Positions 1 through 20,904 of a stretch of 21,017 nucleotides of DNA are shown in pieces; the first letter of the stretch is position 1; each line of letters opens with the position of its first letter. Source of the DNA: Candidatus Micrarchaeota archaeon (GTDB taxonomy: Archaea > B1Sed10-29); contig CAYLXZ010000003.1 of NCBI GenBank assembly GCA_964388265.1, positions 1 through 21,017 on the forward strand, in the 5' to 3' direction. The notes beneath the pieces were generated by a model, which was not told where the DNA came from, ran no database searches, and saw only the letters and a program-made list of their open reading frames with translations. The position numbers were made by a program, and so were the translations under genes.

Positions 1-710
1 TAAGAACAGCTCTAAGACTAGGTTCGTCAGTACTGATAGTCGGAGAAGTAAGATCAAAAGAAGCACAAGTACTATACGAAGCCATGAGAGTAGGAGCAGC
101 AGGAAACGTAGTAATGGGAACAATACACGGAACAGGAGCCTACTCAGTATGGGACAGAGTAGTGAACGACCTAGGAGTACCGAGCACATCATTCAAAGCC
201 ACAGACGTAGTAGTAACCTGTAAACCAGTTAGATTCAAAGGATCACTCCAAAAACAAAGAAGACTCGTAGGAGTAACCGAAATAGGAAAACACTGGTATA
301 AAGACCCATACAAAGAAGGCGAACTCATAGACATACTTGACTTCGACGCAGGAGAAGACGACCACGAAATACTAGAAGAAAACCTCGACGAATCACAGCT
401 ATTTGAAAAAATCTCAAAAGACAGAGGGCTAACCATGGAAGAAATCTGGAACGACATAAACGCAAGAGCAGACACCAAGCAGTTCCTAGTGGACATGAAG
501 AACAAACACAGCATCCCAGGACTCCTAGAAGCAGAATACACAGTACCAGCACACACAAAATGGAACATAATCCTAGAAAACCAAAGACAAGAACACGGAT
601 CCGTGGACTACGAAGAAGCAGAAGAAAAATGGAAAGAATGGGTGAAGAACGAACAAGTAAAAGAACTCGTAGCAAGGAGGAAACACCGTGAGGAAGCCAA
701 GGAACTCTGA
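1..710 (+). CDS. Type IV pilus / type II-IV secretion ATPase (VirB11/TadA/FlaI family), 5'-truncated by the window
   Basis: The frame is open from position 3 (RTALRLGSSVLIVGEVRSKEAQVLYEAMRVGAAGNVVMGTIHG). It contains Walker B (LIVGEVR) and the His box (GTIHG), so the ORF-track start at 84 is internal. Directly followed by a TadC-like gene. Confidence 0.92.
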   Translation, partial: RTALRLGSSVLIVGEVRSKEAQVLYEAMRVGAAGNVVMGTIHGTGAYSVWDRVVNDLGVPSTSFKATDVVVTCKPVRFKGSLQKQRRLVGVTEIGKHWYKDPYKEGELIDILDFDAGEDDHEILEENLDESQLFEKISKDRGLTMEEIWNDINARADTKQFLVDMKNKHSIPGLLEAEYTVPAHTKWNIILENQRQEHGSVDYEEAEEKWKEWVKNEQVKELVARRKHREEAKEL

Positions 711-3697: not shown

Positions 3698-3859
3698 ATG
3701 GATAATATAGGAGGAATGAGCTGGACACCGATATACCTAGCTATTGTGATAGCGATAGCCGTGATACTCTTATTCGCGGTGGTAAAGCCAATGTTCCAAG
3801 GAGGAGCACAGTACGCGGAAACACAGCTCCCATCACTCATTCTTCCACTCCTATCCTGA
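3698..3859 (+). CDS. Small pilin-like single-TM protein, 53 aa (absent from ORF track)
   Basis: Manual translation: MDNIGGMSWTPIYLAIVIAIAVILLFAVVKPMFQGGAQYAETQLPSLILPLLS*. It lies within the pilin cluster and uses host-like A-ending codons (ata, cta, gga). An alternative start at 3716 follows GGAGG. Confidence 0.7.
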   Translation: MDNIGGMSWTPIYLAIVIAIAVILLFAVVKPMFQGGAQYAETQLPSLILPLLS

Positions 3860-3912
3860 ACCAGGTTAAACCCTTACTTCTTCTTTTTCCCTATCTGTAA
3901 CTGACCTAAACC

Positions 3913-3922
3913 TTTTTTATAT
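3913..3922 (+). promoter_or_regulatory. Putative TATA box for a leaderless transcript starting at about 3943
   Basis: TTTTTTATAT lies 21-30 nt upstream of ATG 3943, which has no RBS. Confidence 0.45.
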
Positions 3923-3942
3923 CTAGATATTCTTATTAAACC

Positions 3943-5462: not shown

Positions 5463-6022
5463 ATAAAGGACAGTCAGCTATAATGGACGCGTTATTCTTC
5501 ATGATCATATGCTCGGTGTCAGCTACCTTACTCTTCTACGTCTCCAGTCTCTATGGGCAGAGTGTGGACCAGGAGATAAGCGCTATCTACAACTTCGAAT
5601 ACACAGGGAATGCTCTACTTTCTCTGATGAACGTGGATGACGGTGAATTCTGGAGAGGTGTTCAAGAAAAAGTTGAAAATAATGAAGATATTTCAGATAT
5701 AAGGGAAAATATCAGTAGTTATAAAAATGGAAAGATTTGGGAAGAGGTCCTGAATTCTTCTCCAACCAACTACACCTTCCTTTGTTTTAAACCTATTAAT
5801 CCAATGGAGAATCCTGATGCTTGTGGTAACAGTGAGGGGTGTTACCCTGCTAATTATACGCGTGAAAGTAGCATGGGTGGTAACTGCGATTATAGGCCCC
5901 ACGATCCGGGGAAACCCTACAAGTGTAAGGAGAGTGATTTTAGTACTGCAAATTTTACTTCTTATACTCATTCTGTGGTTGTTGATTCTGGTTGCGGGGC
6001 TTTTATGGTGGTTTATTACTAG
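5459..6022 (+). CDS. Prepilin-like (minor pilin), 187 aa
   Basis: MNKG|QSAIMDALFFMIICSVSATLLFYVSSLY. Start moved from 5438 to ATG 5459 (ATGA overlap with the previous stop). Cys-rich C-terminal half. Confidence 0.83.
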   Translation: MNKGQSAIMDALFFMIICSVSATLLFYVSSLYGQSVDQEISAIYNFEYTGNALLSLMNVDDGEFWRGVQEKVENNEDISDIRENISSYKNGKIWEEVLNSSPTNYTFLCFKPINPMENPDACGNSEGCYPANYTRESSMGGNCDYRPHDPGKPYKCKESDFSTANFTSYTHSVVVDSGCGAFMVVYY

Positions 6023-9000
6023 TTGTTTAGTTTTTCTTGAAGTTCTTTTCTTCTTCGTATTGCTATTATTCCGCCTAGTATCGTTATTATGAATATTGCT
6101 AGTGTTGCTGGCTGTGTTGGTGTTGATGGTAGCTGTGCTGCTATTCCTGGTTTTCCTTTCTCTGCTCCTAGTTCTTCTTGTGGTACTGGTTGTTCTCTTG
6201 ATCCCCATGGTGACTGTTTTGGAGTCATCATGCCTGGGTTCTGCATTCCTGCTCCTCTTTGGCTGAACTGTGGGTTTAGTTTGAATGGGAACTCATTGCT
6301 TATGGAGATTTTTCCGTCTTTGTATTCCATCATTCCTCCTTTTCCCCATGCTCTTAGGAGTGGTGTGGAGGAGGTTACTTGTCCTCTTTTGTTCAGAAGC
6401 TCCATTAGTGGTTGTCCGTTTTCTCCTTTTCTCACTCTCATCTTTTTTCCATTTTCTAGCAGTATATCTCCGTTTTCTGCTATTTTATCTATTTTGTATA
6501 CTTTTGGTTCATCCATTCCTTCTCTCTGCACGTAGAGTTTGCCGTTGTCTATCCATATTCTTTCTCCGTCTGCTCCTTCAAACTGTGAGAACTGCATGTC
6601 GTTGGTTAAGTCGCTTGCTCTTTGGTTGTCCCAGAATGAATCTTCTTTTTCTCCGCTGGTGTCTGTTCCGTCCACGTTTTCCATGTTTATTGGGTCGCCT
6701 ATCTTCTCTCCGGTGTTAGAATTGTAGGCTTGTGCTTGTACTTCTCCATTTGGGCCTTCTTGTATGTCTATCTCTGTGTTACCTGTGTTTCTTTCATGTT
6801 TTTCTCCATCAGGGGTATTGATTATAATTTCGTCTCCTTCTTTTGTTATGCTTCCTTTTCCTTCTCCATCGATTTCGGAGAAGTTCAGGTCCTCTATCTC
6901 GGAGAGTTTCTTGTTTAATTTGCTTCCGAGGAGGTTCTTTAGAGCTGTTATGTTTCCGTCTTCATCAGTTACTCCTTCTCCACCCCAGTTCGCATCATCT
7001 GCATCGAAATCCATTAGGTTGTAGATCATTAAGTGGTTCCATTCATCGAAGTTTCTTGTCACGTTCTCTCCGTTCACTTTCACTTCTTTTTCTCCTCTTC
7101 CTGGGATTAGTTTACCGTTATCAAAGCTGATGAATCCATCTACATCTACTTTGAGGGTTTCTCCTAGTTTGTTGTCTCCATCTTCATCTTGTATCTCTAT
7201 CTCATTGTTTCTGTATACCTGGATCTTTGAGTCTGGGAATCTTATTATCTCATTTTTACCGTATTCTTCTCCTGTTCTTTCCGTGAACATTACTACTGTT
7301 TCTTGGTTGTTGTTCCAGATCACTGCTTGGTCTGTTCTTATCATCTGCAGGCCGCCTAGGAGTGTTTTTGTGCGGGTTGTTTCGGCTAGATCTTCTACTG
7401 TTCTTTTGACCTGTTGTTTCTCGAACTTCACTTCATCTGGTATTCCGGGGTTTATTTCCATTAATTCTTCTTGATCGGTTGAATTTCTTATGTTTATCAC
7501 TTTCTGCGGTATTGTGAGTATTCCTCTTTCGTTGTCCCATCTTAGTCCTCGTGCTTGTGGAGCGTCTTTTATTATGGGTGTACTTTCATTGGTTAGCAGT
7601 GAGTATCCTTCTTTTCTCATGCATCTGTATGCTCCTCCTTGGGTCTGGGTACAGAAGGATATGTCCTGAGCTTGATTTAAGAACCAATCTAGTTGTGAGT
7701 CTCTGTCAAAATGTATCTGGTACAGTTCTGATCCGTATAGTCGGGTATGGCTGCTTCCTTTTATTATTCCTTTTAGTGAGGGTGTGCTTATCATTGTTCC
7801 TGCTGCGAAGTTTTCAAGTGAGGCTTTTGTTTCCTGTGAAACTGAACCTAGCCCTATTGAGTCCATTGGGTTGAAGTTGGTGGATCCTCCTATTTGGCTT
7901 TTGACTTCATCTAATATATTTTGAGATCTATTCTCTGGTTCCGTGAGAGCACTCCATCCTAATCCAAAGTGAACAGTTTCTGTGCAGTTCTTCATTTCTC
8001 TTAATCCTTCTTTTTTCTCTCTTTCATATTCTTTTTCAGCGAAGTAGTTACCTATTGCAGCTCCTATTTGAGCTGCTGCTACTGTTAGCCCTACTGGCCC
8101 AGTAGCTGCGTATGATGATGCTGCTACGGCTATTCCTGCACCGTCAGTACCTATTTCTAATGTTTTCGTTGTTGCCATTAAAGCATAGGCTCCTTTTATA
8201 CTTGCTGTGGTATCCTCAATTTTATTTTCACAGAGATTCCCTCTGCTATAAGCTTCATCTATATCTACTACTTCTGTATATGTAGGGTCGTATCCTTTCT
8301 CTGCAGCATCTTCAGTGAGGGTCTGCCAAGCTTTCGGTGCGATGAATACGCCTGTGAGCCCTAAGGTAGCGTATTGTCCGTATTGTCCGAGTCCTGATGC
8401 TGCTCCTAACATCCCTCCGGATGCTCCTGCGAATATGGAGGATCCTATTAAGGCGGGGGTACTGGGAGTCATTTCCACGAGGTTTCCATAGGGTTTTGTT
8501 GTGTAGTCTCCTTTTGGTTTCATTTGAGCTAGTCCCCCTATGTCAAGTCTCTTCACCATAAAGGTTAGAGAGGTGTATCTTTTCCCGTTTCCAGGTACTT
8601 TGTAGGAGCGGGGGTGTTCGAATGAGTAGTAGTTGGATTTTTCAGGTGTTTGGCTGCTGATCATCCATTTTTCTTCTCCATGGAGATTTACTGGGAGTAT
8701 TACGTTTTTTCCCATTCCTCCGATTTTTTCCGGGACTGATCCTTCTTGGTCTAGGGCTATTATTCTCCCTGGGCCAGGGTTTTCTCTTATTTTACTCCTG
8801 ATGTACTGTACATCACTTTTCTCTGTTAGCATATCTTTTAAATTAGGAACGAACCATTCCTGCATGTTCTCAAATACTCCTGCTGGATACCAACCTTTAC
8901 CCTGAAGATATTCTGTGGATCTTATTATCTCGAAATATGAATCTAGACTTTCTTCTTGTTTTATGACTCTCTTTGGAGTAGCTCTAACTTCCATTTCAAA

Positions 9001-10713
9001 TAAATTAAATCCTCTTCCCCTTTCCCCTAGCCATGGTTGAACAGCGATGAAGAATGCCTGTGTTCCTTTCCAGAGATATAAGTTGAATTGACTCCATCTG
9101 GCGAACCCAGCTCCGAATCTAAGTACTCCTGCTGAGACACCACTTTTGATTGCAGTACCAATACTTCCTGAGCCACCGATGGCACCACCTACTTTTTCGG
9201 CGTAAAGACCGTAGTCTCCCGTTGCTTTCAACACATCGTCAATCTCGCTTAGACTGTCAGGATGCTCTGCTTTGAGCCATCCCTTTAAGCTATCTACATC
9301 ATCCATATCTTCCCATAGTACTTCAGGATCATCATATTTACTTGCCTCGTCAAGACTATCGAGTATTTCACCGTGTTTTCCTAGGTCTGTGGTTATACTG
9401 CTCGCGTCGCTGGCTGCATCGGCAGCATCCAGGCCTTTCTCTAATTCTAGGAAATCTACAACTGCGTCGGGAGATTCCTCATATATTGTATATTTATTCA
9501 GACCTTTTGGTTTTATTTCCAGTGCCCAGAGTCCATCATCTGTCTTTGTGATACCTTGCACTTCATCGGAGTTTTTTACTAGTTGGTTTATTACATCATC
9601 GTTACCTGCGTCGAGACCTCCTTTTAGAGCACTAGTTGCGTCCCTTGTATAATCTGATCCTTTTAACATGTACTTCGCGGCATCTAAATCGTCCCAAATA
9701 TCCATTTTCACTAGTGTTTTGGCCTTGGCACCTTTCGCGAAGCTCTTGAATCCACTTGCTTTACCAGCAGCGAATTTCCCCACCGCGCTGATTCCATCAT
9801 CCGCTAGCGCGCTTATACCTTTACTAGCTAACTTTGGAGCATTCTTTAGGGTAGAGCCAGCGTCCGCGAATGCAATTGCCATTCCAACTAATGCTACGAC
9901 ACCATAACCTGTTTCCAGTGGTCTCATCTGGTGAAGTGTTCCTATAAATTCTGAGAGGTGTTTTGGGAATATGAGAAGATCATCGTAGTGCTGGATATGG
10001 GTAGAGGTATAGTTACTTTGGATTACATTAGGAGGACTTTCAGGGTTTTTATCTTGGAAGCCACCTTCCCCTGTCCCACCTAAGTTATCTAGGACCCATT
10101 CCGAGAAACTGTCCAAGGGACCAGGTTCTTCTGGATCTAGATTTTCTGATTTTTCCCTGGCTTTCTCTATTTTTTCTTGAAGTTCTTTCTCTTCCTTATC
10201 GCTAAGGTACCCTCTTTCACATTCATCGGCTTCTCGCCCCGCGCAAACTCTAAGATTACGGTTTATCGCCGTGGTATAGGAAACAAACCCGTCTACAACT
10301 ACTTTACTAAGGTAACCTTTCTCTGGATCAGCCATTGCGTGTTTGGTGACATCATAAGGACGTACTACTTTACCTTCATTTGTAACTATATATTGGTCGC
10401 TCATCCGTTCAGCCCCAGAGATAGTTGAGACTCCGGCTTTATCGTAGTTCTGATAGTTTTCATACTCTGATTTGTCTCCAAAGCCATCTATCGTGATATT
10501 GCTTGTTTTATCGATAAGGCTCTGTACCTGTCCTGAACTTAGCTCAACTACTTCTACTATTGGATCTCCTGAGGTATCTTCGGACTCCCAGTAACGTGTC
10601 TTCGAGTTGGAGATTCTTATTGTGGCGAATGCTCCTGGTACGAATACCTGCATCACTAGAACCGTGGCTAGGGCCACTGAACTATATTTCAATATGCTCT
10701 TCATGTTACTCAT
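6019..10713 (-). CDS. Large secreted / surface-anchored protein of unknown function, 1564 aa
   Basis: N-terminal Sec-type signal peptide (MKSILKYSSVALATVLVMQVFVPGAFA) and C-terminal LPSTP-TM-RRRK tail. GAGGT RBS upstream; the stop overlaps the opposing gene's stop in CTAG 6019-6022. Confidence 0.85.
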   Translation of the reverse strand: MSNMKSILKYSSVALATVLVMQVFVPGAFATIRISNSKTRYWESEDTSGDPIVEVVELSSGQVQSLIDKTSNITIDGFGDKSEYENYQNYDKAGVSTISGAERMSDQYIVTNEGKVVRPYDVTKHAMADPEKGYLSKVVVDGFVSYTTAINRNLRVCAGREADECERGYLSDKEEKELQEKIEKAREKSENLDPEEPGPLDSFSEWVLDNLGGTGEGGFQDKNPESPPNVIQSNYTSTHIQHYDDLLIFPKHLSEFIGTLHQMRPLETGYGVVALVGMAIAFADAGSTLKNAPKLASKGISALADDGISAVGKFAAGKASGFKSFAKGAKAKTLVKMDIWDDLDAAKYMLKGSDYTRDATSALKGGLDAGNDDVINQLVKNSDEVQGITKTDDGLWALEIKPKGLNKYTIYEESPDAVVDFLELEKGLDAADAASDASSITTDLGKHGEILDSLDEASKYDDPEVLWEDMDDVDSLKGWLKAEHPDSLSEIDDVLKATGDYGLYAEKVGGAIGGSGSIGTAIKSGVSAGVLRFGAGFARWSQFNLYLWKGTQAFFIAVQPWLGERGRGFNLFEMEVRATPKRVIKQEESLDSYFEIIRSTEYLQGKGWYPAGVFENMQEWFVPNLKDMLTEKSDVQYIRSKIRENPGPGRIIALDQEGSVPEKIGGMGKNVILPVNLHGEEKWMISSQTPEKSNYYSFEHPRSYKVPGNGKRYTSLTFMVKRLDIGGLAQMKPKGDYTTKPYGNLVEMTPSTPALIGSSIFAGASGGMLGAASGLGQYGQYATLGLTGVFIAPKAWQTLTEDAAEKGYDPTYTEVVDIDEAYSRGNLCENKIEDTTASIKGAYALMATTKTLEIGTDGAGIAVAASSYAATGPVGLTVAAAQIGAAIGNYFAEKEYEREKKEGLREMKNCTETVHFGLGWSALTEPENRSQNILDEVKSQIGGSTNFNPMDSIGLGSVSQETKASLENFAAGTMISTPSLKGIIKGSSHTRLYGSELYQIHFDRDSQLDWFLNQAQDISFCTQTQGGAYRCMRKEGYSLLTNESTPIIKDAPQARGLRWDNERGILTIPQKVINIRNSTDQEELMEINPGIPDEVKFEKQQVKRTVEDLAETTRTKTLLGGLQMIRTDQAVIWNNNQETVVMFTERTGEEYGKNEIIRFPDSKIQVYRNNEIEIQDEDGDNKLGETLKVDVDGFISFDNGKLIPGRGEKEVKVNGENVTRNFDEWNHLMIYNLMDFDADDANWGGEGVTDEDGNITALKNLLGSKLNKKLSEIEDLNFSEIDGEGKGSITKEGDEIIINTPDGEKHERNTGNTEIDIQEGPNGEVQAQAYNSNTGEKIGDPINMENVDGTDTSGEKEDSFWDNQRASDLTNDMQFSQFEGADGERIWIDNGKLYVQREGMDEPKVYKIDKIAENGDILLENGKKMRVRKGENGQPLMELLNKRGQVTSSTPLLRAWGKGGMMEYKDGKISISNEFPFKLNPQFSQRGAGMQNPGMMTPKQSPWGSREQPVPQEELGAEKGKPGIAAQLPSTPTQPATLAIFIITILGGIIAIRRRKELQEKLNN

Positions 10714-12025: not shown

Positions 12026-13495
12026 ATGATTAATCTACTTGGAATGGAACTCAGTTTATTCTGGCTGGCCTTAAACGCCGTTGCTCTACTCGGAGCAGTT
12101 AGCTACGGGTACCTAATCCTAAGATTCAACTTCCCAGACATAAGAATGCTATCAGACCAAATGAAATTCGGACTAGCAGCCACTCTTGGACTGATAATAG
12201 TAATACCATCTCTCTTATCATCTGTATTCATCTTCCAGAACTCACTGTACTCATTCTCCATCGCAGCAGCACTAGCAGGAGCACTGACCCTGGTGCTGAA
12301 AGCATGGGTCGCCTACACCTCCACAGGAAAATCCAAAGTAGCCATGCCCGTTGCCAGAGGACCAAAACCACAGCCAGCGGAAAAAGTAAAAAAGAAAATC
12401 GAGAAGAAGGAACCTGAAGAAAAAGCAGAAAAAGAAATCGAGGAACTAGAAGAATTCGAAGAACCAGAAAAAGAAGAAAAACCCGAAAAGGAAGAAGAAC
12501 CAGAGATAAAACCAGAGAAAGAAAAAGAGAAACTAAAAGAACTTAGAGAGAAAAAGAAACCAAAAGAAGCTAAGGAAGAAGAGGAGAAACCCGAAGAGGA
12601 AAAACCTGAAGAAAAAGAGGAAAAAGAAGAAGTGAAAGAAAAGCCAAAGGAAGAACCCGAAGTCAAGGAAACTGAAGAAGAGAAACCTGAGATCGAGAAA
12701 CCCAAAGTAAAGAAGACAGAAAAAGAGGAAAAACCTGAAGAAAAAGAAAAAGGTAAAGAAGAGGAGGGGGAACCAGAGATAAAGCCAGAGGAAGAAAAAG
12801 AAAAACTCAAAAAGTTAAGAGAAAAAAGAAGAAGAGAAGAAGAGGAACCCGTGGAAATCGAAGAAGAAAAACCAGAAGAGGAGAAGAAAGGAACGCTAGG
12901 CAAACTCAAAGAAAAGATAGTAGGCGGAGAAAAAGAAAGACCAGAGAGAAGACCAAGAAGAAAGAAAGAACCAAAGAAGAAATCTAAAGGAAGAAAAAGA
13001 TACCTCAAACACAGAAGAGAAAAAGAGGAAGAAGAAGGAAAAGGATCACAGTACCTTAGCTACATGGAAGAAGCCGAAGAAGAAGTATCAGGAAAAGTAA
13101 AATCCGAAGAAGTGAAGGAAAAAACCTCGGAAGAAAGCCTAGGAGAACTACCCTCACTAGAACCTGAAGGCGAGGAAGAGGAAACATCCCTAGGAGACCT
13201 AGGGGACCTAGGAGAAGAAGACGTAGAAGGAAGCGTAACAGGAGAACTAGAGGACATCGCAGGAATAAGCGAAGAAAAAGAAGTAGAAGAAGAAACCAAG
13301 GAAGAGAAAGAAGAGAAAGAAGAAGGATGCCCGAACTGCGGAGCCAAAAACACCACAGTAATATACTGCCCGAACTGCGGGTCAGGAGTATGCAGCAACT
13401 GCGCAGAACAGATAAAGTCAGCTGGAAAATTCATAACCTACAAATGCCCAAAATGCGGAAAACAAATACTTGTAAAGAAAGAAGAAAAAGAATAA
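12026..13495 (+). CDS. Membrane-anchored Glu/Lys-rich low-complexity protein with C-terminal 4xCxxC zinc-binding module, 489 aa
   Basis: Three N-terminal TM helices, about 320 aa of E/K/P-rich sequence, then CPNC-x9-CPNC-x4-CSNC-x14-CPKC. Confidence 0.85.
   Translation: MINLLGMELSLFWLALNAVALLGAVSYGYLILRFNFPDIRMLSDQMKFGLAATLGLIIVIPSLLSSVFIFQNSLYSFSIAAALAGALTLVLKAWVAYTSTGKSKVAMPVARGPKPQPAEKVKKKIEKKEPEEKAEKEIEELEEFEEPEKEEKPEKEEEPEIKPEKEKEKLKELREKKKPKEAKEEEEKPEEEKPEEKEEKEEVKEKPKEEPEVKETEEEKPEIEKPKVKKTEKEEKPEEKEKGKEEEGEPEIKPEEEKEKLKKLREKRRREEEEPVEIEEEKPEEEKKGTLGKLKEKIVGGEKERPERRPRRKKEPKKKSKGRKRYLKHRREKEEEEGKGSQYLSYMEEAEEEVSGKVKSEEVKEKTSEESLGELPSLEPEGEEEETSLGDLGDLGEEDVEGSVTGELEDIAGISEEKEVEEETKEEKEEKEEGCPNCGAKNTTVIYCPNCGSGVCSNCAEQIKSAGKFITYKCPKCGKQILVKKEEKE
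12497..12830 (+). repeat. Intragenic degenerate direct repeat (~60 nt, copies at ~12497 and ~12770)
   Basis: gaaccagagataaaaccagagaaagaaaaagagaaact vs gaaccagagataaagccagaggaagaaaaagaaaaact; protein EPEIKPEKEKEKLKELREKK vs EPEIKPEEEKEKLKKLREKR. Confidence 0.7.
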
Positions 13496-14053
13496 CTAAT
13501 CCTTCTTAGCTCTCTTAGTGACATAAGGAAAAGCAAACTTATCTCCAGACAGATGAAGAGGCGGCCTAACCATATCCACCTTCAAGTTACCGTCTTCGTC
13601 AATGTTATCTTCGTCCACATGGATCTTTCTAACTTCCCCGATGATCTGAATATGGTCTCCTTCCTTTTTAGCTTTCTTAACCATACACTCCATACTCACA
13701 GGGCACTCGGACAGTAGAGGAGGTGCCACGAGATCGCTTTCCTCTGTTTCAAGATCAGCTTCCTCTATCTTGGATTTCTCTTCATCCCAGTCCCCTCCAG
13801 TTGTCCATACCTTGTCGAGCATGTCTTCTGTGGGTATGTTGATCACGAACTCTTCTTTCTGGGTTATGCTCCAGTAGCTATGTTTCTTAGGTCCTACTGA
13901 AATCATTAATAATGGAGGGTCGAATGATATTGGTCCGTTGAAGGAGAATGGTGATACATCTGCTCTTCCTCTCTTGCTTACAGTGGTAACTAGCAGAGTA
14001 GGTCTTGGAACCAGGAGTTTATGGAAGTCTCGGTTATCTACATCTATCTCCAT
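13496..14053 (-). CDS. Flavin reductase-like FMN-binding protein (flavoredoxin / DIM6-NTAB family)
   Basis: PRPTLLVTT, SPFSF, PPLLMISV, EFVINIP, ECPVSMEC and GDHIQIIGEV motifs are typical of the family. Confidence 0.92.
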   Translation of the reverse strand: MEIDVDNRDFHKLLVPRPTLLVTTVSKRGRADVSPFSFNGPISFDPPLLMISVGPKKHSYWSITQKEEFVINIPTEDMLDKVWTTGGDWDEEKSKIEEADLETEESDLVAPPLLSECPVSMECMVKKAKKEGDHIQIIGEVRKIHVDEDNIDEDGNLKVDMVRPPLHLSGDKFAFPYVTKRAKKD

Positions 14054-14054
14054 T

Positions 14055-14414
14055 TTAACCCATCCAGATATTTTCCTCTATCTCTACCTCTACTCCTTTG
14101 TCTTCGAGGATAACGTCTCTTATCTCTCCTTCTCCCACGTATTCAACCTGTAGCCTTACTGCGAGAGCTTCCTCTTCATCGAATAAGGTATCTATCTTCT
14201 GGTAGAATTCTTTCTTGGATTTTACTTCCGCGACTACTCCTTTGGATTCTGGTGTGATATCTTTCTTGCCTTCTTGGGTTATGAATATGTCTTCTCCTTC
14301 CTTTGTTTTTCCAGCTATCTCCACGTTGTCTGATGTTATTAACTCGAATGTGTGTAGTTCGTTCTGTCTTAATTTCTTTATTGTTTCTTTTTTTATTCCG
14401 GTTAGGGTTTTCAT
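14055..14414 (-). CDS. DUF473-family archaeal protein
   Basis: N-terminal LTGIKKETIKKL...TFELITSDN and IFIT...DITP...GVVAEV resemble DUF473; lies directly downstream of a PAC2 gene; GGTGA RBS. Confidence 0.7.
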   Translation of the reverse strand: MKTLTGIKKETIKKLRQNELHTFELITSDNVEIAGKTKEGEDIFITQEGKKDITPESKGVVAEVKSKKEFYQKIDTLFDEEEALAVRLQVEYVGEGEIRDVILEDKGVEVEIEENIWMG

Positions 14415-14423
14415 TTTATCACC

Positions 14424-15167
14424 TTAGCTGTACATGGGGGAGGGAGCGGTTTCGGATGATTCTTTGTATTTGTTCTTGGCTTTCTTCATTCTTTTAACCA
14501 TCTTCTTCATCTTGCCTTCTATGTCTTTGGCTTCTTCTCTTAGTTCCTCGGTGTCTACGTCTATGTCTAGGAGTTCGTTTAGTTTTTCCACGAGGTCTGC
14601 TGCTGCTTCTGGGTCAGGGAGGTTTCTTCTTGATTCTACGAGCAGGCTCATTGTTGGGAAGTCTTTCTCCGCGGCTTTTGCGATCAGTTGACCTGATACA
14701 CCCATTGCTGCTCCTTCTTTTATTAGTGGAACGTCGTGGTCTTTTAGGTAGTTTTTCAGGTTGTCTTGGGATACTATTCCGTGTACGCCTTTCTTTTCTT
14801 CTTTCTTTTGGGTGGTTGCCATTCCTCCGATGGATATTATTTTCTTGAGTTTTTGTTCTTCTGCGAATTCAAGTATCTTTCCGGATAATTGATGGATCAC
14901 TTCATTTGGAACTATTAGCTCTCCCATTAGTAGGGCTATTTTCTTGCTTGGGTGTTTGAATATTCTTACTGGGAAGTAGGGTTTTCCTTCGTGGATTGGG
15001 GTTACTGGTGGGAATTCTTCGGAGTATACGTATCCTACTGGCTTCATTTCTTCTTTTTCAACCAGGTAGCTTGATGCGATTGTTCCTACTAGTCCTATTC
15101 CTGGAAATCCTTCGATTAACACGTGGTCGCTTAAGTCAACGTCTTCTGTGAGTTTTATTTCAACCAT
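14424..15167 (-). CDS. Proteasome assembly chaperone (PAC2) family protein, PbaA-like
   Basis: EGFPGIGLVGTIA, FPP, PVRIF, PDPEAAA and LREEAKDIE motifs; C-terminal HbYX motif MYS. Confidence 0.92.
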   Translation of the reverse strand: MVEIKLTEDVDLSDHVLIEGFPGIGLVGTIASSYLVEKEEMKPVGYVYSEEFPPVTPIHEGKPYFPVRIFKHPSKKIALLMGELIVPNEVIHQLSGKILEFAEEQKLKKIISIGGMATTQKKEEKKGVHGIVSQDNLKNYLKDHDVPLIKEGAAMGVSGQLIAKAAEKDFPTMSLLVESRRNLPDPEAAADLVEKLNELLDIDVDTEELREEAKDIEGKMKKMVKRMKKAKNKYKESSETAPSPMYS

Positions 15168-15310: not shown

Positions 15311-16417
15311 TTATCTCTTTGCCTTGAGGAGGTTTTTTCCTTTAGGGAGGAGAGGGATTGAGGCTATGTTTCTTGATGCGTTTAGATCAGCGTTAAGTTC
15401 AAAACCACACTCCTTACATTTAAACTCTCTTCTTTCCCTATTTTCTCTATCTTTGTAACCGCATTTAGAGCAAATTTGTGAAGTATATTTAGGGTTAACT
15501 TCTTTTATTGGGACTCCTTCCTCTTCTGCCTTATATTTAATTTTGTCTATTAGGTCTCGGAACCTCCAAGAGTGAATCTCTCTGTTAAATTCTCTTCCTT
15601 TATCTTCTTCTCTTATTTTTTCTAGTTTTTCTATTGCTATTCCATATTTGTATTTCTTGGCTAGTTCAACTACTTCTTTTGAGATTTTGTGGTTGATGTC
15701 ATTAGAGTAGTTTGTTTCTTTGTTGAAGATGTCTTTTAGTGCTCTCCAATGGTCATTTTCCCCTGTTTTTTCTTCTTGTAGGTGTTTTCTTTTCTCTCTA
15801 TATTCTTTTCTTCTTTCTCTTAGTTTTTTTCCATTATAGAATTTGTTGATTTTCCCTTTTGGATCTGATAACACTAATAAATGCTTAATTCCTAGGTCAA
15901 CGCCAAACCACCCCTTGGGTTCGTATTCTTCTTCGCAAGGTATCTTAAAGGCGATGTAGATAAACCAGTTGTTTTCTTTTTTCTTGAGAACGGCGTTACC
16001 GTATCCGTTGTTGAATAGTTTTTTGAATTTGCTGGGTATTATGAATGGAAGCCACTCTTTCTTTCCTTGTAGTAGTGGTAGTTGTATGAAGTGGCTGTTG
16101 ATTTCTATGAATCTTTTCTTGAAGCTCATTGAGTCTTCCTTATATTTTGACATTCCGTTTGATCGGTATATTTGTATGGCTCTGTTCATTGCTTCTTGTA
16201 CTGTTTCAGAGTATAGTTTTGGGTATTTTTCTCTTACTTTTTTGTATCCATGGCGGTGGGTGTTTCCTCTATTTGGGTATTCTCCCATTTCGTCTATTAT
16301 TTCGAGCCAGAGATTAATGGCTCCTTTGAATTTTTTTACTGCTTTTTTCATTGTTTCTTCTTTGTTTTTGTTTGGTTCCCTTAACTTGAATTTATAATAC
16401 CTTTTTTGCGTAACCAT
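15311..16417 (-). CDS. tnpB: RNA-guided endonuclease TnpB (IS200/IS605 family), ~368 aa
   Basis: RuvC-I GVDLG, RuvC-II IAIEKL, zinc finger CSKC/CKEC and RuvC-III NADLNASRNI, with all three catalytic acidic residues present. Start placed at ATG 16417 (MVTQKRYYKFKL), 23-30 nt downstream of TTTAAATA. Confidence 0.93.
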   Translation of the reverse strand: MVTQKRYYKFKLREPNKNKEETMKKAVKKFKGAINLWLEIIDEMGEYPNRGNTHRHGYKKVREKYPKLYSETVQEAMNRAIQIYRSNGMSKYKEDSMSFKKRFIEINSHFIQLPLLQGKKEWLPFIIPSKFKKLFNNGYGNAVLKKKENNWFIYIAFKIPCEEEYEPKGWFGVDLGIKHLLVLSDPKGKINKFYNGKKLRERRKEYREKRKHLQEEKTGENDHWRALKDIFNKETNYSNDINHKISKEVVELAKKYKYGIAIEKLEKIREEDKGREFNREIHSWRFRDLIDKIKYKAEEEGVPIKEVNPKYTSQICSKCGYKDRENRERREFKCKECGFELNADLNASRNIASIPLLPKGKNLLKAKR

Positions 16418-16439
16418 ATTGTTATTGTGGATAGTAAGA

Positions 16440-16449
16440 TATTTAAAGA
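16440..16449. promoter_or_regulatory. Putative bidirectional TATA box for tnpB (-) and omegaRNA (+)
   Basis: TATTTAAAGA reads TTTAAATA on - and TTTAAAGA on +; the spacing fits a leaderless tnpB mRNA and a + strand start near 16470. Confidence 0.5.
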
Positions 16450-16469
16450 TGTAGGGGAATAATGTATTA

Positions 16470-16652
16470 TAAGCTTGGCTATATGTCGAGCTGTTTGGAG
16501 CCCTTGCTGGCGGGGGTGCAAACAATCCATATTTGAACGGAACCTCTGTATTCAAGTTCTTAGTAATGGAAGTGTAACCTATAGAGTTCCTGTGTCAGGA
16601 ACCCTCTTCTTTCAGGGAGAGGAGGACGTCAGGGTATTTAACTTTGGGAATG
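16470..16652 (+). ncRNA. Putative omegaRNA (reRNA) scaffold plus ~20-nt flank-derived guide
   Basis: Three stems seen by eye: TGTTTG..CCCTTG-ctgg-CGGGGG..CAAACA (16492-16524), GGAACCTCTGTA/TATAGAGTTCC (16539-16590) and the right-end hairpin (16603-16622), ending in GTCAG at 16632. G-T pairs favour the + strand. The 5' and 3' limits are estimates. Confidence 0.6.
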
Positions 16653-16681: not shown

Positions 16682-17572
16682 TCAGAGCAGTTCCAGCACG
16701 TTTATTGATTTAGCGACATTGAACAAGAGCAGGGATAGGGGTAGGAGTATAGATATATAAATAAGGGTTTTTTCTATTTCTTTTTCTTGGTATGCTACGA
16801 ATATCGATGCTATGATGGAGTATAGTGCTATGTAGATTTGGTTACCTAGAATTGAGTTTTTCTTAACTGCTTGTTTTACTCCTTGGCTGAGACCTATATT
16901 GAGTTCTGTGATCGGAGCTATTTCAAGGGTGTTTATCACTGAGATCATGGATCCTAGGAGCACTGGTACTATGAGTCCTCCTGCTAGTAGTAGAGTGTAT
17001 TTTTCCACGGTCGCGGATACTTTTCTTTTTCTCTTCATCTCATGTAGTTTTGAGGCTTCGTTTGCTGTTTCTTCCAGTGACTTGGAGAGGTCGCATCCTG
17101 TTTCATGTCCTATTATAAGTACTTCCACGGCTCTTTCTATTAGATCTGAGTTTATTCTTGCCTTCATGTCTTGAAGTGCTTTTTTCACGGATGAACCTGT
17201 CTTTATCTGTTTATAGGTTTTCTTGAATTCCTGTGCTAGTTCTCCTTCTTCCTTGGATATGTTTTCTAGGACTTTCTCCGTGTTTCTGTATGATGCGATG
17301 GAGGAGGCTTGGTAGAGCAGTGGAACTAGCTCTTTCTCCATCTTTCTTTTCTTCTTTTTCTCAAGGTACCTTGGGTAGAAGTAGAGGTATAAGGGCAGTG
17401 GTGAGGATAGGATGATGGCTAGTAGGGGTGTCAGCACTGGTTTTATTCCTAGGAAGAATAGGAACGCGAACAGCACCACTGGCAGAGTCATTGTTTTCTT
17501 CATTGTCTTTTTTAAGGTTCTTTTCCTCGGTTCTTTAAGTTTCTTCAATTTTTCTATATCCATTTTTATCAT
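16682..17572 (-). CDS. Type II secretion system F / TadC-like membrane protein, 296 aa
   Basis: GELAQEFKKTYKQIKTGSSVKKALQDM...SDLIERAV...ETGCDLSKSLEETA T2SSF pattern; TM helices at both ends; operonic with TadB-like gene and ATPase. Confidence 0.88.
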   Translation of the reverse strand: MIKMDIEKLKKLKEPRKRTLKKTMKKTMTLPVVLFAFLFFLGIKPVLTPLLAIILSSPLPLYLYFYPRYLEKKKKRKMEKELVPLLYQASSIASYRNTEKVLENISKEEGELAQEFKKTYKQIKTGSSVKKALQDMKARINSDLIERAVEVLIIGHETGCDLSKSLEETANEASKLHEMKRKRKVSATVEKYTLLLAGGLIVPVLLGSMISVINTLEIAPITELNIGLSQGVKQAVKKNSILGNQIYIALYSIIASIFVAYQEKEIEKTLIYISILLPLSLLLFNVAKSINVLELL

Positions 17573-18396
17573 TAGGGTTTCTTTGTTGCTGTGTAGCCAA
17601 GTATCAGGAGGTTCAGTGCTGGGAACCCAACTGCGGGTATTAGTAGCGCTTGTGTTGGGCTTATGTTTAGGTTTAGGAAGTTTGATCCTATTATCACTAG
17701 TGCTTGGAACATTGCTGGAATAACTGCGGATGCTGCTATGAATAGCAGTGAATATACGAGTAGTTTCTCGTTGTATTCCTTCATTTTGTTTCTTAGTATT
17801 GATTCTTGTTCTCTGGCTAGTTTCTTGAGTGCTTTGCTTCCTTTTTCTGGGTCTGTGGAGTGGATTGAGGTCATCTGGCTTGCTGTTCTTTTTATGAACT
17901 TGCTTGTGTTTCTTCTGCTCATCTTTGCTAGGGCTTCTGGGAAGCTTGATCCTTTCTTTAGGTCCTTGTTCACTTTCTTGAGTTCCTTTCCTCCTGGGTT
18001 ATCTTGGCTTGCGGCGTGTTGGATGGATCTGTGGAGTGGTGTACCTATCTTTAGTTCTGTTGAAATGGTTCTGAGTGCTCTTGCCATGGATCGATCCAGC
18101 GAGTTATTGTATTTCCTTTTCACTATTCCAGGGATCTTCGTTACCAGGTAGTAGAGGCTGCTGAAGGAGATTAACCCTATTCCAGCTGCTTTCACTGGGC
18201 TCTGAGTTAATAGCAATCCTATTAAGAGCAGTGAAATGGTTATTGATATACCTATGGATATCCTGATGTATCTGTCTGGATCTATATCTGTGTTTTTTAG
18301 TTTTCTCTTTATCTCGAGTCTTCTATTTCTAGGTATAATTACTTCTAGGGGCTTGAATCTTTCTTCAAGCATCTTCTTCGCTTCATCTGGATTCAT
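17572..18396 (-). CDS. Type II secretion system F / TadB-TadC-like membrane protein, 274 aa
   Basis: ALRTISTELKIGTPL...ELKKVNKDLKKGSSFPEALAKM T2SSF pattern with flanking TM helices. Confidence 0.88.
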   Translation of the reverse strand: MNPDEAKKMLEERFKPLEVIIPRNRRLEIKRKLKNTDIDPDRYIRISIGISITISLLLIGLLLTQSPVKAAGIGLISFSSLYYLVTKIPGIVKRKYNNSLDRSMARALRTISTELKIGTPLHRSIQHAASQDNPGGKELKKVNKDLKKGSSFPEALAKMSRRNTSKFIKRTASQMTSIHSTDPEKGSKALKKLAREQESILRNKMKEYNEKLLVYSLLFIAASAVIPAMFQALVIIGSNFLNLNISPTQALLIPAVGFPALNLLILGYTATKKP

Positions 18397-20077
18397 CTTT
18401 AACCTCTTTTATTATCTGTTCTTGGTTTTCTCCGTAGCTAAGTTCAAGTTTCTCCATCAACTTGGTTCCCTTCATCTTCTCAGGCCTGTATCCTTTTTCT
18501 TTGCTGTATATCTCTATTGGTTCTGAGTCTTTGTCCAGCGTGGATGCTTGGATTACTTTCCTCTTCTCTTCGCTTTCTTCTGAGTGATCTATCCATCTTC
18601 TTTGAACTAGGATTAGGTCTATTGTCTTCAGGTCGTTTCTACTTATTCCTAGGGATTTTAGCCTGGTTAATGTTTCTTCTGTTGAGTTTCCGTGGAATGT
18701 TGTGATTGTTCCTTTTCCCTGTCCTGCTAGCATGGTGTTGAACAGCGCCTCTACCTCCTTCTCATCTCTTACTTCGCCTACGATTATCCTGTCGGGCCTC
18801 ATTCTCAGTGTATCGGTTACTAGTTGATACATCTCTATGTCAAGTGATGGTGAGGTGGTTAGTCTTATCACGTGGTCTTGAGGAGGATTTACCTCAGGAG
18901 TTTCCTCTACGAGTATCAGCCTCTCGGTCTCTGGCAGGAAGTTTAGAAGGGTGTTGAGTGTGGTTGTCTTACCGCTTCCGGTGTTCCCTGCTATCAGGAT
19001 ATTCGTATCGCACTTCATGGTTCTTTCTATCAGTTTCATGAGACCTGGGTCTATTGTGTTGTTCTCTACAAGGTCTTTTGGTTTGAATTTGTCTTTTATG
19101 AATTTACGTATGGTCATGCAGTTTCCCGTGGTTGCAAGTGGCTCTATGGCTCCGTGTATCCTACCTTTATCTATATTGGCGTTTACTCTTGGTTTCTTCA
19201 GGGTTATTCTTCTGTCGAGTTTTCTTGCGGCTTTGTTTATAAGGTTCTTCACCTTCTCAGGGTTTGTTATCTCTAGATCTGTCTGTATCCACCCGTGGTC
19301 CACATGGTATACGTATAGGGGTTTCTTTGGGGCTATTATGGATATTTCCTCTAGTTCTTCGTCCTCTATAAGTGTCTCTAGTATGGATAATCCGTTTATC
19401 TCTCTGTGTATGTATCTGGCTATTTTCTCCACATGGTCTTCTGTGATCTCGAGGTTCATTTCCAGGCATTTTCTCTCAGTCTCTGCCTCTATCTCGCTTC
19501 TATCTGTTCCTGTTTCGTTTTCTCTGATGTGTTTTATTATCTCGCTGGTTATCTTGGCTTCCTGTAGCCCTAAGTTCTCTTCTCCTGTGAAGTAAACTGG
19601 TTCATCTCTTTCTTTGGTTATTGCGATCTTTCCTTCTATCTCTCTGGTTTTCTCTAGGTCTCTTACTCTGTATCCAATCTTCTCTCTTAAGGTATTTTTC
19701 TCTTCCTGGGTGTAAACTACTTCCAGCGCGTTGTATGGACATGCTTTCACGCATTTATAGTCCTCTTCACCCGCACATAGATTACATTTAATTGGTGTCT
19801 CTCCATCATGAAGTATCTTGCCATCGGATTTCTCCATGCAGAGCCCGCAGTCACTGCATTTCTCTTTATTCAACTGGTGGTTGTGCGATTGGTTTTCCTC
19901 GAAAGCTGATTCCGGGCAGTTTCTTGTTATGGATTCGTCTAGGCTCGAGGAATGGAAGAACTCCATTAATTCACTTTTGGAGTAGGTTTCCGTCATCTCT
20001 TGAGTTACTTGTGGACAGGCTTCAAAGCAAAGAGAACATCCCTCGACGCACTTGTCTCTATGTACCTCGATCTTCAT
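18383..20077 (-). CDS. TadA/CpaF/VirB11-family secretion ATPase with N-terminal [4Fe-4S] ferredoxin-like domain, 564 aa
   Basis: Walker A GNTGSGKTT, Asp box VEETPE, LRMRPDRIIVGEVR (Walker B) and TTFHG; 12 Cys in ferredoxin-type motifs within aa 10-113. Confidence 0.92.
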   Translation of the reverse strand: MKIEVHRDKCVEGCSLCFEACPQVTQEMTETYSKSELMEFFHSSSLDESITRNCPESAFEENQSHNHQLNKEKCSDCGLCMEKSDGKILHDGETPIKCNLCAGEEDYKCVKACPYNALEVVYTQEEKNTLREKIGYRVRDLEKTREIEGKIAITKERDEPVYFTGEENLGLQEAKITSEIIKHIRENETGTDRSEIEAETERKCLEMNLEITEDHVEKIARYIHREINGLSILETLIEDEELEEISIIAPKKPLYVYHVDHGWIQTDLEITNPEKVKNLINKAARKLDRRITLKKPRVNANIDKGRIHGAIEPLATTGNCMTIRKFIKDKFKPKDLVENNTIDPGLMKLIERTMKCDTNILIAGNTGSGKTTTLNTLLNFLPETERLILVEETPEVNPPQDHVIRLTTSPSLDIEMYQLVTDTLRMRPDRIIVGEVRDEKEVEALFNTMLAGQGKGTITTFHGNSTEETLTRLKSLGISRNDLKTIDLILVQRRWIDHSEESEEKRKVIQASTLDKDSEPIEIYSKEKGYRPEKMKGTKLMEKLELSYGENQEQIIKEVKDESR

Positions 20078-20213
20078 GTGGTTTTTAGTTTTGGTTTCTT
20101 TAAATTCAATTCTCCAACGGTTTTGAGTTAAAGAAAGTTAGATAATCTCTTAAATTACGAGTAGTGAAGTGATATAGGGAAAGATATAAGTACTTGTACG
20201 GGCACAGTAGGTA

Positions 20214-20375
20214 ATGGTGAAGATTATGGTTAAAGATGAAAATAAGTCTTTACTTGACTTTGCTGGGGAATGGAAAGGCGAGAAAGAAGAAACAGAGGAA
20301 ATACTTGAAGAACTAATGGAAGAGAGACATAAAGCTAAAAGAACCTCTAATCATGAGAAATCAAAAACATTTTAA
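20214..20375 (+). CDS. Small acidic protein resembling the C-terminal half of archaeal VapB/DUF217-type antitoxins, 53 aa (absent from ORF track)
   Basis: MVKIMVKDENKSLLDFAGEWKGEKEETEEILEELMEERHKAKRTSNHEKSKTF*. GGAAA-GATATAAGTA (BRE/TATA-like) at ~20178-20192; alternative ATG 20226 after GGTGA. Confidence 0.5.
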   Translation: MVKIMVKDENKSLLDFAGEWKGEKEETEEILEELMEERHKAKRTSNHEKSKTF

Positions 20376-20411
20376 TCAAATACCCAATCTAAAGGTTCGG
20401 ACTTGGTAATG

Positions 20412-20759
20412 CTAGAAGTCTATTTTATCGCCTACTTCCAGGTCTTCTTCATCTGCTTTGCCAGCTGGCATCTCCAAGAGAAACTTACTCGGTTTACCTG
20501 GCATTATGCAGGGATTGAATGGCCTTATATTTCTCTTGATATCCACTATCTCTTTATCTTCATCTAGGAACACTGCGTCGAACCTGAAGAGAACAAAGAA
20601 AGAATGAATAGCTGAAAAGAACTTCGATTCTCTCTTGAACTTGAATAAGAGACAGTAGTCAAATTTAGATTTTCTCCTGAACATCAATCCCCTTACCTTA
20701 CTTAAGAAAGAATCCACTTCCCTTACCTCTAAATCCAGGTCCTCTACATCCATTGCCAT
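20412..20759 (-). CDS. DUF192 (UPF0127) family protein
   Basis: DSFLSKVRGLMFR, IHSFFVLFRFDAVFLD, LLEMPAG and LEVGDKI motifs. Confidence 0.9.
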   Translation of the reverse strand: MAMDVEDLDLEVREVDSFLSKVRGLMFRRKSKFDYCLLFKFKRESKFFSAIHSFFVLFRFDAVFLDEDKEIVDIKRNIRPFNPCIMPGKPSKFLLEMPAGKADEEDLEVGDKIDF

Positions 20760-20904
20760 ATCGTTTTTTTACTTTTCCCCTCTTATAGATGTTTTGGGGT
20801 CTTGGAAAACAACCACTATGGAAAATTAATTTAGAGGTATGGAAAAAATATTTATAGTTGTGTGGGTATAACTTTGTATAGTTACCTAATGACCAGTCAA
20901 AATT

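Follow-up and report, generated by a model that had tools for sequence, protein, structure and literature searches.

A putative multi-cluster ferredoxin-like module on a type IV filament assembly ATPase of small-genome archaea, with family-wide loss of one ligand set

The window analysed here, a stretch of 21,017 nucleotides (positions 1 to 21,017 of contig CAYLXZ010000003.1 in GenBank assembly GCA_964388265.1, from a Candidatus Micrarchaeota archaeon), contains a gene in which a ferredoxin domain is fused to an assembly ATPase of the type IV filament Tad/FlaI/GspE type. The gene (positions 18383..20077, reverse strand) encodes 564 amino acids in a single open reading frame (ORF) that is uninterrupted, with zero stops, in the translation of the window, and its parts were recognised from Pfam matches, AlphaFold2 (AF2) models and fold matches. 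The N-terminal module, a predicted nested double ferredoxin of the HycB/DmsB type, comprises residues 1–122 (19712..20077) and holds 12 cysteines (Cys 10, 14, 17, 21/54/74, 77, 80/98, 101, 109, 113), followed by an intact ATPase in which three further Cys (204, 320 and 356) are found. It was delimited by fold search and by the match, over residues 1–122, to a hidden Markov model (HMM) designated A1, which was built from 16 hand-chosen N-termini with 16 Cys. The Pfam families Fer4_10, Fer4_7, Fer4_2 and Fer4 all exceed their cut-offs on this N-terminus, and the AF2 model of the full-length protein has a mean predicted local distance difference test score (pLDDT) of 92.9 and a predicted template modelling score (pTM) of 0.82.

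In most relatives the Cys of the module form four groups of four (I–IV), and the ligands present in the window were assigned from the translation and the HMM columns, with all positions on the reverse strand. Group I (C10, C14, C17 and C21-P22; 20015..20050) has the spacing CxxxCxxCxxxCP, one residue longer than the CxxCxxCxxxCP usual among the 16-Cys relatives, and is invariant in seven sequences of the family. A radical-SAM reading of the CxxxCxxC in this group was rejected, as the motif continues with xxxCP inside a ferredoxin fold and the relatives have CxxCxxC. The first three Cys of group II (II1–3) are replaced by residues 34–53 (19919..19978), where the corresponding HMM columns read F/S/I. 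This segment is predicted to include a helix (residues 34–45 or 34–41 in two models) and retains K, L, F and S residues that are conserved across the family; single-cluster ferredoxins, where the second site is occupied by a helix, offer a parallel. C54-P55 (19913..19918), the sole remaining Cys of group II (II4), is invariant in 95 selected sequences. Group III (19826..19858) retains C74, C77 and C80 but has lost its fourth ligand, III4 being Ser84, and group IV (19739..19786) is complete with C98, C101, C109 and C113-P114 (KCxLC...CxxxCP). A linker helix (residues 123–135, 19673..19711; helical from 124 to 133/134 in the models) leads to the ATPase and ends in a conserved LGW-type motif, here IGY, in which G135 is nearly invariant in the alignments of relatives.

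A preliminary description of this DNA, made from the letters alone, had drawn attention to positions 19724–20077, which correspond to residues 1–118. The Cys positions it named are all exact, and both peptides it quoted, FFHSSSLDESITRNCP and CSDCGLCMEKS, are present in the translation of 18383–20077. It had also proposed that a frameshift or stop separating two genes would overturn its reading, and none was found. Besides the single unbroken frame, Logan contigs from two runs of one sediment study, one of which may be the window's own source, cover positions 18300–20800 with zero indels, and a contig from the second sample (X2, 19431–19857) crosses from the ferredoxin part into the ATPase N-domain with 0 differences. 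The same architecture was found in 27 genomes of the phylum and in four of 121 sampled genomes of another phylum. The idea that a ferredoxin gene was joined to an ATPase gene by the assembly or by gene calling is already refuted by these data and retains a negligible probability.

The ATPase matches Pfam T2SSE at residues 297–512 (E 2.3e-37, 129 bits against a cut-off of 24.9). In an alignment of 103 sequences little or no variation is seen in the columns of the Walker A motif (GNTGSGKT, residues 364–371, 18965..18988), the EETPE box, RMRPDR...GE.R and the His box, and E391–E395, R425–D429, E435, R437 and H462 are invariant throughout. Foldseek with the full model recovered GspE (2oap, E 4e-32), FlaI (4ihq, E 2e-30) and CpaF (8rjf, E 1e-28). 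The T2SSE match, the Walker A motif, the Asp and Walker B boxes with the catalytic Glu, the His box and the two-domain fold bear out the earlier call of an intact TadA/VirB11 ATPase, and, with all testable features found, the protein belongs to the archaeal FlaI/GspE/TadA branch. A hexamer with ATPase activity that drives filament assembly is predicted for the fusion protein from its sequence. It has the same N-domain and RecA-like core as GspE of A. fulgidus (2oap), the archaellum ATPase FlaI/ArlI (4ihq, 4ii7) and the Tad ATPase CpaF/TadA (8rjf), and shares with them the Walker A, Walker B and His boxes and the pairing with TadC/T2SSF platform genes. However, those ATPases have no iron–sulfur (Fe–S) domain and their N-terminal extensions are short, disordered or helical, whereas here about 122 extra residues make up a multi-cluster ferredoxin module.

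When the A1 profile was used to find sequence relatives of the module, the polyferredoxin MvhB had the best score (E 8.5e-37), reached through repeated local matches, and FwdF was also found. The next matches were to four-cluster subunits and were collinear: HycB4, NrfC/PsrB 52–137, FdnH 99–191, EbdB and NarH 183–263. The fold of residues 1–135 modelled alone (pLDDT 91) was then compared with 48,161 chains using VIA, a search independent of Foldseek. Four-cluster electron-transfer subunits top this search and match the whole module (model residues 1..126–135, with 119–129 residues aligned for the best six). They are chains of a tungsten aldehyde oxidoreductase (AOR; 9mqx_E, Z 11.2, and 8c0z_F, Z 10.4), of hydrogen-dependent CO2 reductase (HDCR; 7qv7_G, Z 11.2), of arsenate reductase Arr (6cz7_B, Z 10.2), of WOR5 (6x6u_B, Z 9.9), of polysulfide reductase (2vpw_B, Z 9.5) and of nitrate reductase A, NarGHI (1q16_B, Z 6.5), below which the rows fall to Z ≤4.7. 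Simple 2[4Fe-4S] ferredoxins (Z ~4) align to residues 40..93 only, as does 1dur_A with all of its 55 residues, while others (5t5i_G, 8amp_A) span 1..123 yet have only about 62 residues aligned, and Foldseek agrees. Because the simple ferredoxins match either an inner unit at 40–93 or a split outer unit only, the pairing of the groups is nested. The model thus carries the signature of a nested double ferredoxin, with groups II and III as an inner unit set within an outer unit made of groups I and IV, a topology derived from fold-search ranges and not from Cys–Cys or cluster–cluster distances.

The HMM columns, the profile alignment and the fold search assign the module to the DmsB/HycB/NarH type, in agreement with the preliminary description, and most homologues have four Cys groups. 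The same nested fold extends across the module in HycB3/4 of HDCR (7qv7), AorA-type subunits (9mqx_E, 8c0z), ArrB (6cz7_B), PsrB/NrfC (2vpw_B), FdnH, NarH, DmsB and CooF (Z 11.2–6.5), and the motifs of the groups follow one another in the same order, among them KCDLC...CxxxCP of group IV. In contrast to these subunits, the module is far more compact (about 105 residues for the four groups, with a short I-to-II spacer), is fused to an ATPase instead of docking on a catalytic subunit and, in the window, lacks one entire ligand set (12 of 16 Cys). Nor is there the relay context of such subunits, as no molybdo- or tungstopterin, hydrogenase or carbon monoxide dehydrogenase subunit was found in the window or in 11 related loci. 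As the window copy departs from these proteins in both its ligands and its context, its module is described as derived from the HycB/DmsB-type family and not as a functional member of it. The likeness to the polyferredoxins MvhB and FwdF (9sw6_G, 5t5i_F), despite the best sequence scores, is at the level of the single ferredoxin unit and not of the nested four-group layout: the matches are local to repeat units, single repeats align to groups III–IV, and FwdF has a Foldseek probability of 0.33–0.57 and is absent from the top VIA rows. A search for short stand-alone forms of the module with residues 1–122 of P0050 gave one candidate with shared words and none that scored, by a method that requires shared 5-residue words and could miss distant relatives.

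In nested four-cluster proteins each cluster is bound by Cys 1–3 of one group and Cys 4 of the partner group (I1–3 + IV4, IV1–3 + I4, II1–3 + III4 and III1–3 + II4). Under this pairing the window misses II1–3 and III4 and no other ligand, and three sets are complete while one is wholly absent. The remaining sets are the adjacent outer pair, I1–3 + IV4 and IV1–3 + I4, and a single inner set, III1–3 + II4. That exactly one cluster's ligands had been lost, as first proposed, holds under nested pairing and is backed by the fold search and by independent losses of whole clusters elsewhere in the family. P0054/P0064, P0158 and P0140 are all without I1–3 + IV4, although P0140 retains one stray Cys. 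P0138 is without both I1–3 + IV4 and II1–3 + III4, and its eight Cys are exactly two nested sets at non-adjacent sites. In P0226 the sets I1–3 + IV4 and III1–3 + II4 are missing, a pattern compatible with both nested and tandem pairing, and P0211 resembles P0226 but has a degenerate group III.

The tandem alternative, in which group I would pair with II and group III with IV, was suggested by the MvhB repeats that align to groups III–IV with a similar short spacer. It was rejected as the less likely pairing on the fold search and the loss patterns, as it would leave partial ligand sets in the window clade (two damaged sites), P0054/64, P0158 and P0138. The independence of the losses was judged from a FastTree phylogeny of the ATPase core that is quick and unrooted, so that loss counts are approximate; it includes 184 of 259 proteins, the other 75 being outside the length range 420–720, lacking a Walker A match or having one among their first 200 residues. 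On this tree the window clade (five sequences, support 100) is placed among 16-Cys sequences, I1–3 + IV4 was lost in at least three separate places, and P0138 represents a second, separate loss of II1–3 + III4. By a rough reckoning from five concordant events, with the lone lost Cys taken as random among the four position-4 Cys, the probability of this agreement by chance is about 0.001. The columns for I4, IV1–3, II4 and III1–3 are invariant in the 95 selected sequences, a set that has the most divergent forms outside it. The ancestral and commonest form of the module has 16 Cys, for four [4Fe-4S] sites; in the window's family one of these sites has lost all four of its ligands (II1–3 + III4), and a conserved segment, predicted to be helical, has taken their place. 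Since the Cys of a nested set are either all retained or all missing, real binding of clusters by the module is strongly implied by the sequences and models, and the coordinated loss of a single set suggests that the remaining clusters are real.

The II1–3 + III4 site is presumably FS3, in the middle of the electron-transfer wire. This label follows the NarH numbering as we take it to be and is only partly checked, through the alignment to NarH 183–263, a range that begins and ends where groups II and IV are assumed to begin and end, and through the published statements that follow. Passages in PMC8301774 and PMC8840923 place FS1:FS2 and FS3:FS4 in two separate domains and state that electrons travel through the clusters in the order of their numbers. 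For the assignment of numbered clusters to Cys groups, the literature offered general statements only and nothing usable. The lost site is called interior because of the two-domain layout, the numerical order and the assumed FS3 identity. With this site gone, the distance between the remaining inner cluster and the outer pair would not allow fast electron transfer, and hence transfer through the domain would not be the selected function in the window's family; a through-wire function in this lineage is unlikely. The two non-adjacent sites of P0138 point the same way, towards a whole-module relay that is not maintained.

Relatives were collected by a word-indexed search, which listed 120, and by an exhaustive profile search against 50%-identity representatives, for which the best 150 of 51,006 ATPase relatives were used. 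The module, recognised by a match to A1, is carried by 127 of the 259 relatives collected. Whether homologues keep 16 Cys had been put forward as a check, and most do (94/127), 75 of them in all ligand columns and 19 with the first group II Cys shifted to give CxC, as in P0006 (Cys 34, 36, 41 and 45). The window and its four closest relatives among those collected (56–88% identity) share the pattern CCCC xxxC CCCx CCCC. Public relatives bear the names Diapherotrites, Iainarchaeum and Micrarchaeota, and Iainarchaeota is the commonest phylum in the ESM Atlas cluster; both, like the genome size, point to an archaeon of the DPANN type. The JGI automatic label for such proteins is 'Flp pilus assembly CpaF family ATPase/Fe-S-cluster-containing hydrogenase component 2'.

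In GTDB the window's phylum, which is of the small-genome DPANN type, has 31 species genomes. A match to A1 (E ≤ 1e-10) was found in 27 of these, exactly one copy in each, and in 10 of the 11 genomes of high quality. The matching frames are mostly of about 535–590 codons, and three lie in shorter frames of 136–339 codons. In the window's family (f1, with three genera) the 12-Cys pattern is shared by all six genomes, in two of which contig ends cut the sequence. The other 21 genomes comprise 19 with 16 Cys, one with 15 and one with eight. The 12-Cys form is thus a family-level trait that is most simply explained by a single event. In another phylum the module was found in 4/121 sampled genomes, where all six frames found are ATPase fusions, so that the architecture and distribution, which the preliminary description had marked for a search, are those of a protein family and not of a single gene. 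The fusion was found in none of five genomes labelled Micrarchaeota, Woesearchaeota, Parvarchaeota, Iainarchaeum and Hydrothermarchaeota. A contig scan with the full-length alignment gave, among the matches listed, the ATPase domain only, many of them bacterial CpaF.

Three of the four phylum genomes with no A1 match (G008, G009 and G023) and the genome with eight Cys (G014) were inspected individually. The orthologue in G014 is an 8-Cys form, and at the G023 locus (L144), with the order DUF192/ATPase/TadC/TadC/PAC2, a minimal 8-Cys ferredoxin precedes the ATPase. In L144 and in P0170 two CxxCxxCxxxCP motifs are found four residues apart, a spacer unusually short for a 2[4Fe-4S] fold. The orthologues in G008 and in G009 (92% complete) have no Cys-rich module, and the G009 protein starts at the conserved LGW linker motif. 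The orthologues form a series of 16, 12, 8 and 0 Cys within one phylum, and the module is accessory, as syntenic or best-matching orthologues have eight Cys or none.

These patterns bear on whether the module could be a purely structural Fe–S (or metal) scaffold that holds an N-terminal docking domain in shape and senses nothing. There are parallels in the tetracysteine Zn site of GspE/PilB-type ATPases and in the Fe–S domain of ABCE1. Such a scaffold would fit the finding that the site stapling the N-terminal strand to the C-terminal group (I4 + IV1–3) is present in every domain-bearing sequence individually inspected, as well as the loss of interior or terminal sites while the domain stays and the existence of domain-free orthologues. 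On the other hand, four low-molecular-weight clusters would be a costly means of folding 120 residues, in genomes that are often without a recognisable SufBD, and the retention of all 16 Cys in 94/127 suggests that cluster number matters. Scaffolding and sensing are inseparable by sequence alone, and we regard the purely structural explanation as doubtful.

Within the f1 family, seven distinct 12-Cys sequences (from five genomes and two metagenome proteins, covering three genera) were compared over residues 1–122. All 12 Cys are invariant, against 18 of the 110 other positions, in line with the proposal that the remaining Cys are under selection. The naive probability of this outcome, 0.16^12 or about 4e-10, is overstated given the kinship of the sequences and the general conservation of Cys, but the contrast is still clear. 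The same comparison argues against a decaying remnant, in which the 12 Cys would be functionless leftovers. Related lineages have a reduced domain or none, and in f1 the domain evolves faster than the ATPase core, as would be expected of a remnant, but the replacement segment has conserved residues of its own, the fold is predicted with confidence (pLDDT 91), and no frameshifts, scattered Cys losses or partial ligand sets were seen in the six f1 genomes. A remnant is consequently very improbable.

The genes around the fusion gene point to a filament assembly locus. Its stop is overlapped by a gene for a TadC/T2SSF-like platform protein of 274 amino acids (17572..18396; Pfam T2SSF, E 1.3e-12), which is in the same order in 11 related loci and is followed by a second of 296 amino acids (16682..17572; E 4.5e-11). 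Upstream on the same strand is a DUF192 (COG1430) gene (20412..20759; Pfam DUF192, E 3e-17), and downstream of the pilus genes are PAC2, DUF473 and Flavin_Reduct genes (13496–15167, with Flavin_Reduct at 13496–14053). The order on the reverse strand, from upstream to downstream, is DUF192, the fusion gene, two T2SSF/TadC-like genes, TnpB, PAC2, DUF473 and Flavin_Reduct. The TnpB/IS605-OrfB gene (15311–16555, with a Cas12f-like TNB domain), between the second TadC-like gene and PAC2, breaks a gene order that is contiguous in related genomes. Among 11 loci sampled elsewhere in the phylum, with 113 ORFs around them called by a simple script, DUF192 is upstream of the fusion gene in nine, at least one T2SSF gene is downstream in all 11 and two are downstream in eight; the three loci with one T2SSF match have an uncalled gap adjoining the ATPase. 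PAC2 is present in 11/11, Flavin_Reduct in 9/11 and DUF473 in 4/11.

The best explanation is that the fusion gene encodes the ATPase of a minimal Tad/Epd-like machine for the assembly of archaeal type IV filaments, which consists of this ATPase and two TadC-like platform proteins. A layout with an ATPase and two platform genes per locus is designated 'system 1' in a passage of PMC13705601, which places it in methanogens, Thermococcales and DPANN. The DUF192 gene overlaps the fusion gene in locus L126, while in the window the two are separated by a 334-bp spacer that has a TTTAAA box about 25–30 nt before the start codon of the ATPase. A complex prediction for residues 1–300 with the DUF192 neighbour scored 0.00, a value from a prediction with no control runs that speaks neither for nor against binding.

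The Flavin_Reduct product is the sole redox-type gene product encoded near the ferredoxin module. Its presence downstream in most of the related loci and in the window is relevant to a further explanation, that the module is a working electron-transfer subunit between a soluble electron donor and an acceptor at the base of the pilus, of which the form with 12 Cys would be a shortened version. The donor could be the genome's 66-amino-acid ferredoxin or the flavin-reductase-like protein of the conserved neighbourhood. The module's closest relatives, by fold and by sequence, are without exception electron-transfer subunits, and most lineages keep 16 Cys. Against this, the interior site is gone in the window's family, P0138 keeps two non-adjacent sites only, orthologues work without the domain, and the locus has no oxidoreductase catalytic subunit or membrane redox anchor. 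PAC2 and DUF473 also lie between the pilus genes and the flavin reductase gene, and the PAC2/(DUF473)/Flavin_Reduct trio after the pilus genes may reflect inherited gene order only. A relay is thus an unlikely role for the module, though for the 16-Cys forms it may still apply.

A second, separate type IV filament locus is found at 3–6022 on the forward strand. It consists of the C-terminal end of another T2SSE ATPase (3–710), a T2SSF-type platform protein of 682 amino acids (688–2736) and six small ORFs (2747–6022) with class III (prepilin)-like signal peptides and a hydrophobic stretch, the N-termini of which are MKKGQ, MMRGQ, MNKGQ, MNRG, MKKG and MNKGQ. An ORF of 1564 amino acids (6019–10713, reverse strand) has a signal-peptide-like N-terminus and zero Pfam matches, and the ORFs of 245 and 171 amino acids that precede it likewise match no family. 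Large Laminin_G_3/ConA-like proteins are encoded near the pilus genes in related loci. A 489-amino-acid ORF (12026–13495, forward strand) is hydrophobic at its N-terminus, and weak zinc-ribbon/RING-like matches at its C-terminus all fall short of the Pfam cut-offs. The genome as a whole (G000, of which the window is contig 3) comprises 725,682 bp in 45 contigs and is 82% complete. It has seven matches to the ATPase, of which only that of the fusion gene carries the Cys-rich module. With seven matches to secretion-type ATPases in 0.73 Mb, filament or secretion motors take up much of the coding capacity.

The same genome was examined for other Fe–S proteins and for the means to assemble clusters. 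Six further Fer4 loci were found, including a ferredoxin frame of 66 codons, two MinD/ParA-type frames with a ferredoxin part and a frame of 588 codons that we take to be ABCE1. One Aminotran_5 (cysteine-desulfurase-type) gene and one Mrp/ParA-type gene are also encoded. Judging by these genes, Fe–S proteins would belong to the proteome of this organism. SufBD was found in 10 of the 31 genomes of the phylum, a count to which genome incompleteness applies. A connection between the cluster loss and the absence of SufBD (0/6 in f1 against 10/25 elsewhere) was considered and nothing is claimed, given the small numbers and the kinship of the genomes. How Fe–S clusters are made in genomes that are often without a recognisable SufBD is a side question raised by these data.

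The best explanation of the module is an accessory N-terminal domain with real clusters and a structural or sensory role, to which we give about even chances. Clusters would be bound in vivo, as the motifs, fold and conservation indicate, and the folded state of the module would depend on them. The module would then act in the manner of other N-terminal extensions in the superfamily, docking system-specific partners or sensing signals. It would serve either as a plain scaffold for docking or as a reporter to the motor of the redox state or of whether the clusters are intact. Intact clusters, in cells that are anoxic, Fe–S-replete and in a suitable redox state, would let the hexameric motor engage the platform, and assembly would be shut down when clusters are damaged by oxidation or lost. 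N-terminal extensions of the superfamily ATPases are proposed as interaction interfaces in a passage of PMC13705601.

Several observations weigh against this explanation. In f1 the identity between modules is 41–55% while that of the ATPase C-domain/core is 70–77%, and this faster divergence also appears to exceed that of pairs with 16 Cys (module 50–74% at core 66–71%), so that some relaxation of constraint on the f1 module is possible. SufBD (PF01458) was not found in G000, at 82% completeness, nor in any of the six f1 genomes, one of which is 91% complete; thus multi-cluster Fe–S proteins appear to be encoded, yet an assembly route for the clusters is not evident from the gene content. The AF2 models are free of cofactors, and binding of Zn is compatible with the computed results. 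We know of no sensor output, redox partner or regulated phenotype. The broken-wire argument takes its distances from known four-cluster structures and not from the coordinates of the model, and the outer pair could still exchange electrons with one partner and the lone inner cluster with another.

A more specific version of the sensory role, suggested in the preliminary description, is that of a redox-gated pilus motor, in which the module would read redox, oxygen, iron or Fe–S status and switch the ATPase or its docking to TadC. The gate might be operated through reduction by a small ferredoxin or through oxidative damage to clusters. This we consider possible but decidedly tentative.

To our knowledge, no type IV pilus, archaellum, Tad or type II/IV secretion ATPase that has been studied contains Fe–S clusters, and the earlier remark that no characterised example was known agrees with the literature searched. 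Full-text searches found no paper that describes a fusion of a ferredoxin to a pilus ATPase. The word 'ferredoxin' gives 0 matches in the main texts of the archaeal pilus surveys PMC4858521 and PMC13705601, and PMC8407392 contained nothing relevant to the fusion. An Fe–S protein genetically tied to an archaeal pilus is AapX (arCOG07320) of the Aap pilus of Sulfolobales, as described in a passage of PMC13705601, but AapX is a separate gene of another family and not a fused ferredoxin domain. ABCE1/Rli1, with an N-terminal 2x[4Fe-4S] domain on a twin-ABC ATPase, and MinD of the COG1149 type, with a ferredoxin insert, likewise combine a P-loop ATPase with a ferredoxin-type module outside the classical redox enzymes. 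ABCE1 (7o80_Bz) appears as a weak Foldseek row, and candidates of both kinds are encoded in G000. However, these are unrelated classes of ATPase, and ABCE1 has two clusters instead of four or three, so that the comparison is one of analogy only. MshEN, the N-terminal domain that senses cyclic di-GMP in the pilus ATPases MshE and PilB, is similarly an accessory N-terminal module of an extension ATPase that could gate assembly, but it binds a nucleotide and not metal clusters.

The window adds to this picture the clean, family-wide loss of one ligand set, a test of nested pairing and the 16/12/8/0 series. Its lineage amounts to a natural experiment in which one interior cluster has been cleanly removed and three kept, and this clean removal supports real binding and fixes the ligand pairing. 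If the explanation is correct, 12 Fe per monomer would be expected here and 16 in the 16-Cys relatives, with one interacting pair and one isolated cluster in electron paramagnetic resonance spectra. If the clusters are real, they would represent a new type of input to a very widespread family of motors. In DPANN-type archaea pili are thought to mediate contact with the host. Were redox gating also true, a genome-reduced archaeon of the symbiont type would extend its attachment filaments only under suitable anoxic, energised conditions, and the 16/12/8/0-Cys forms found within one phylum would be a tuning series of the switch.

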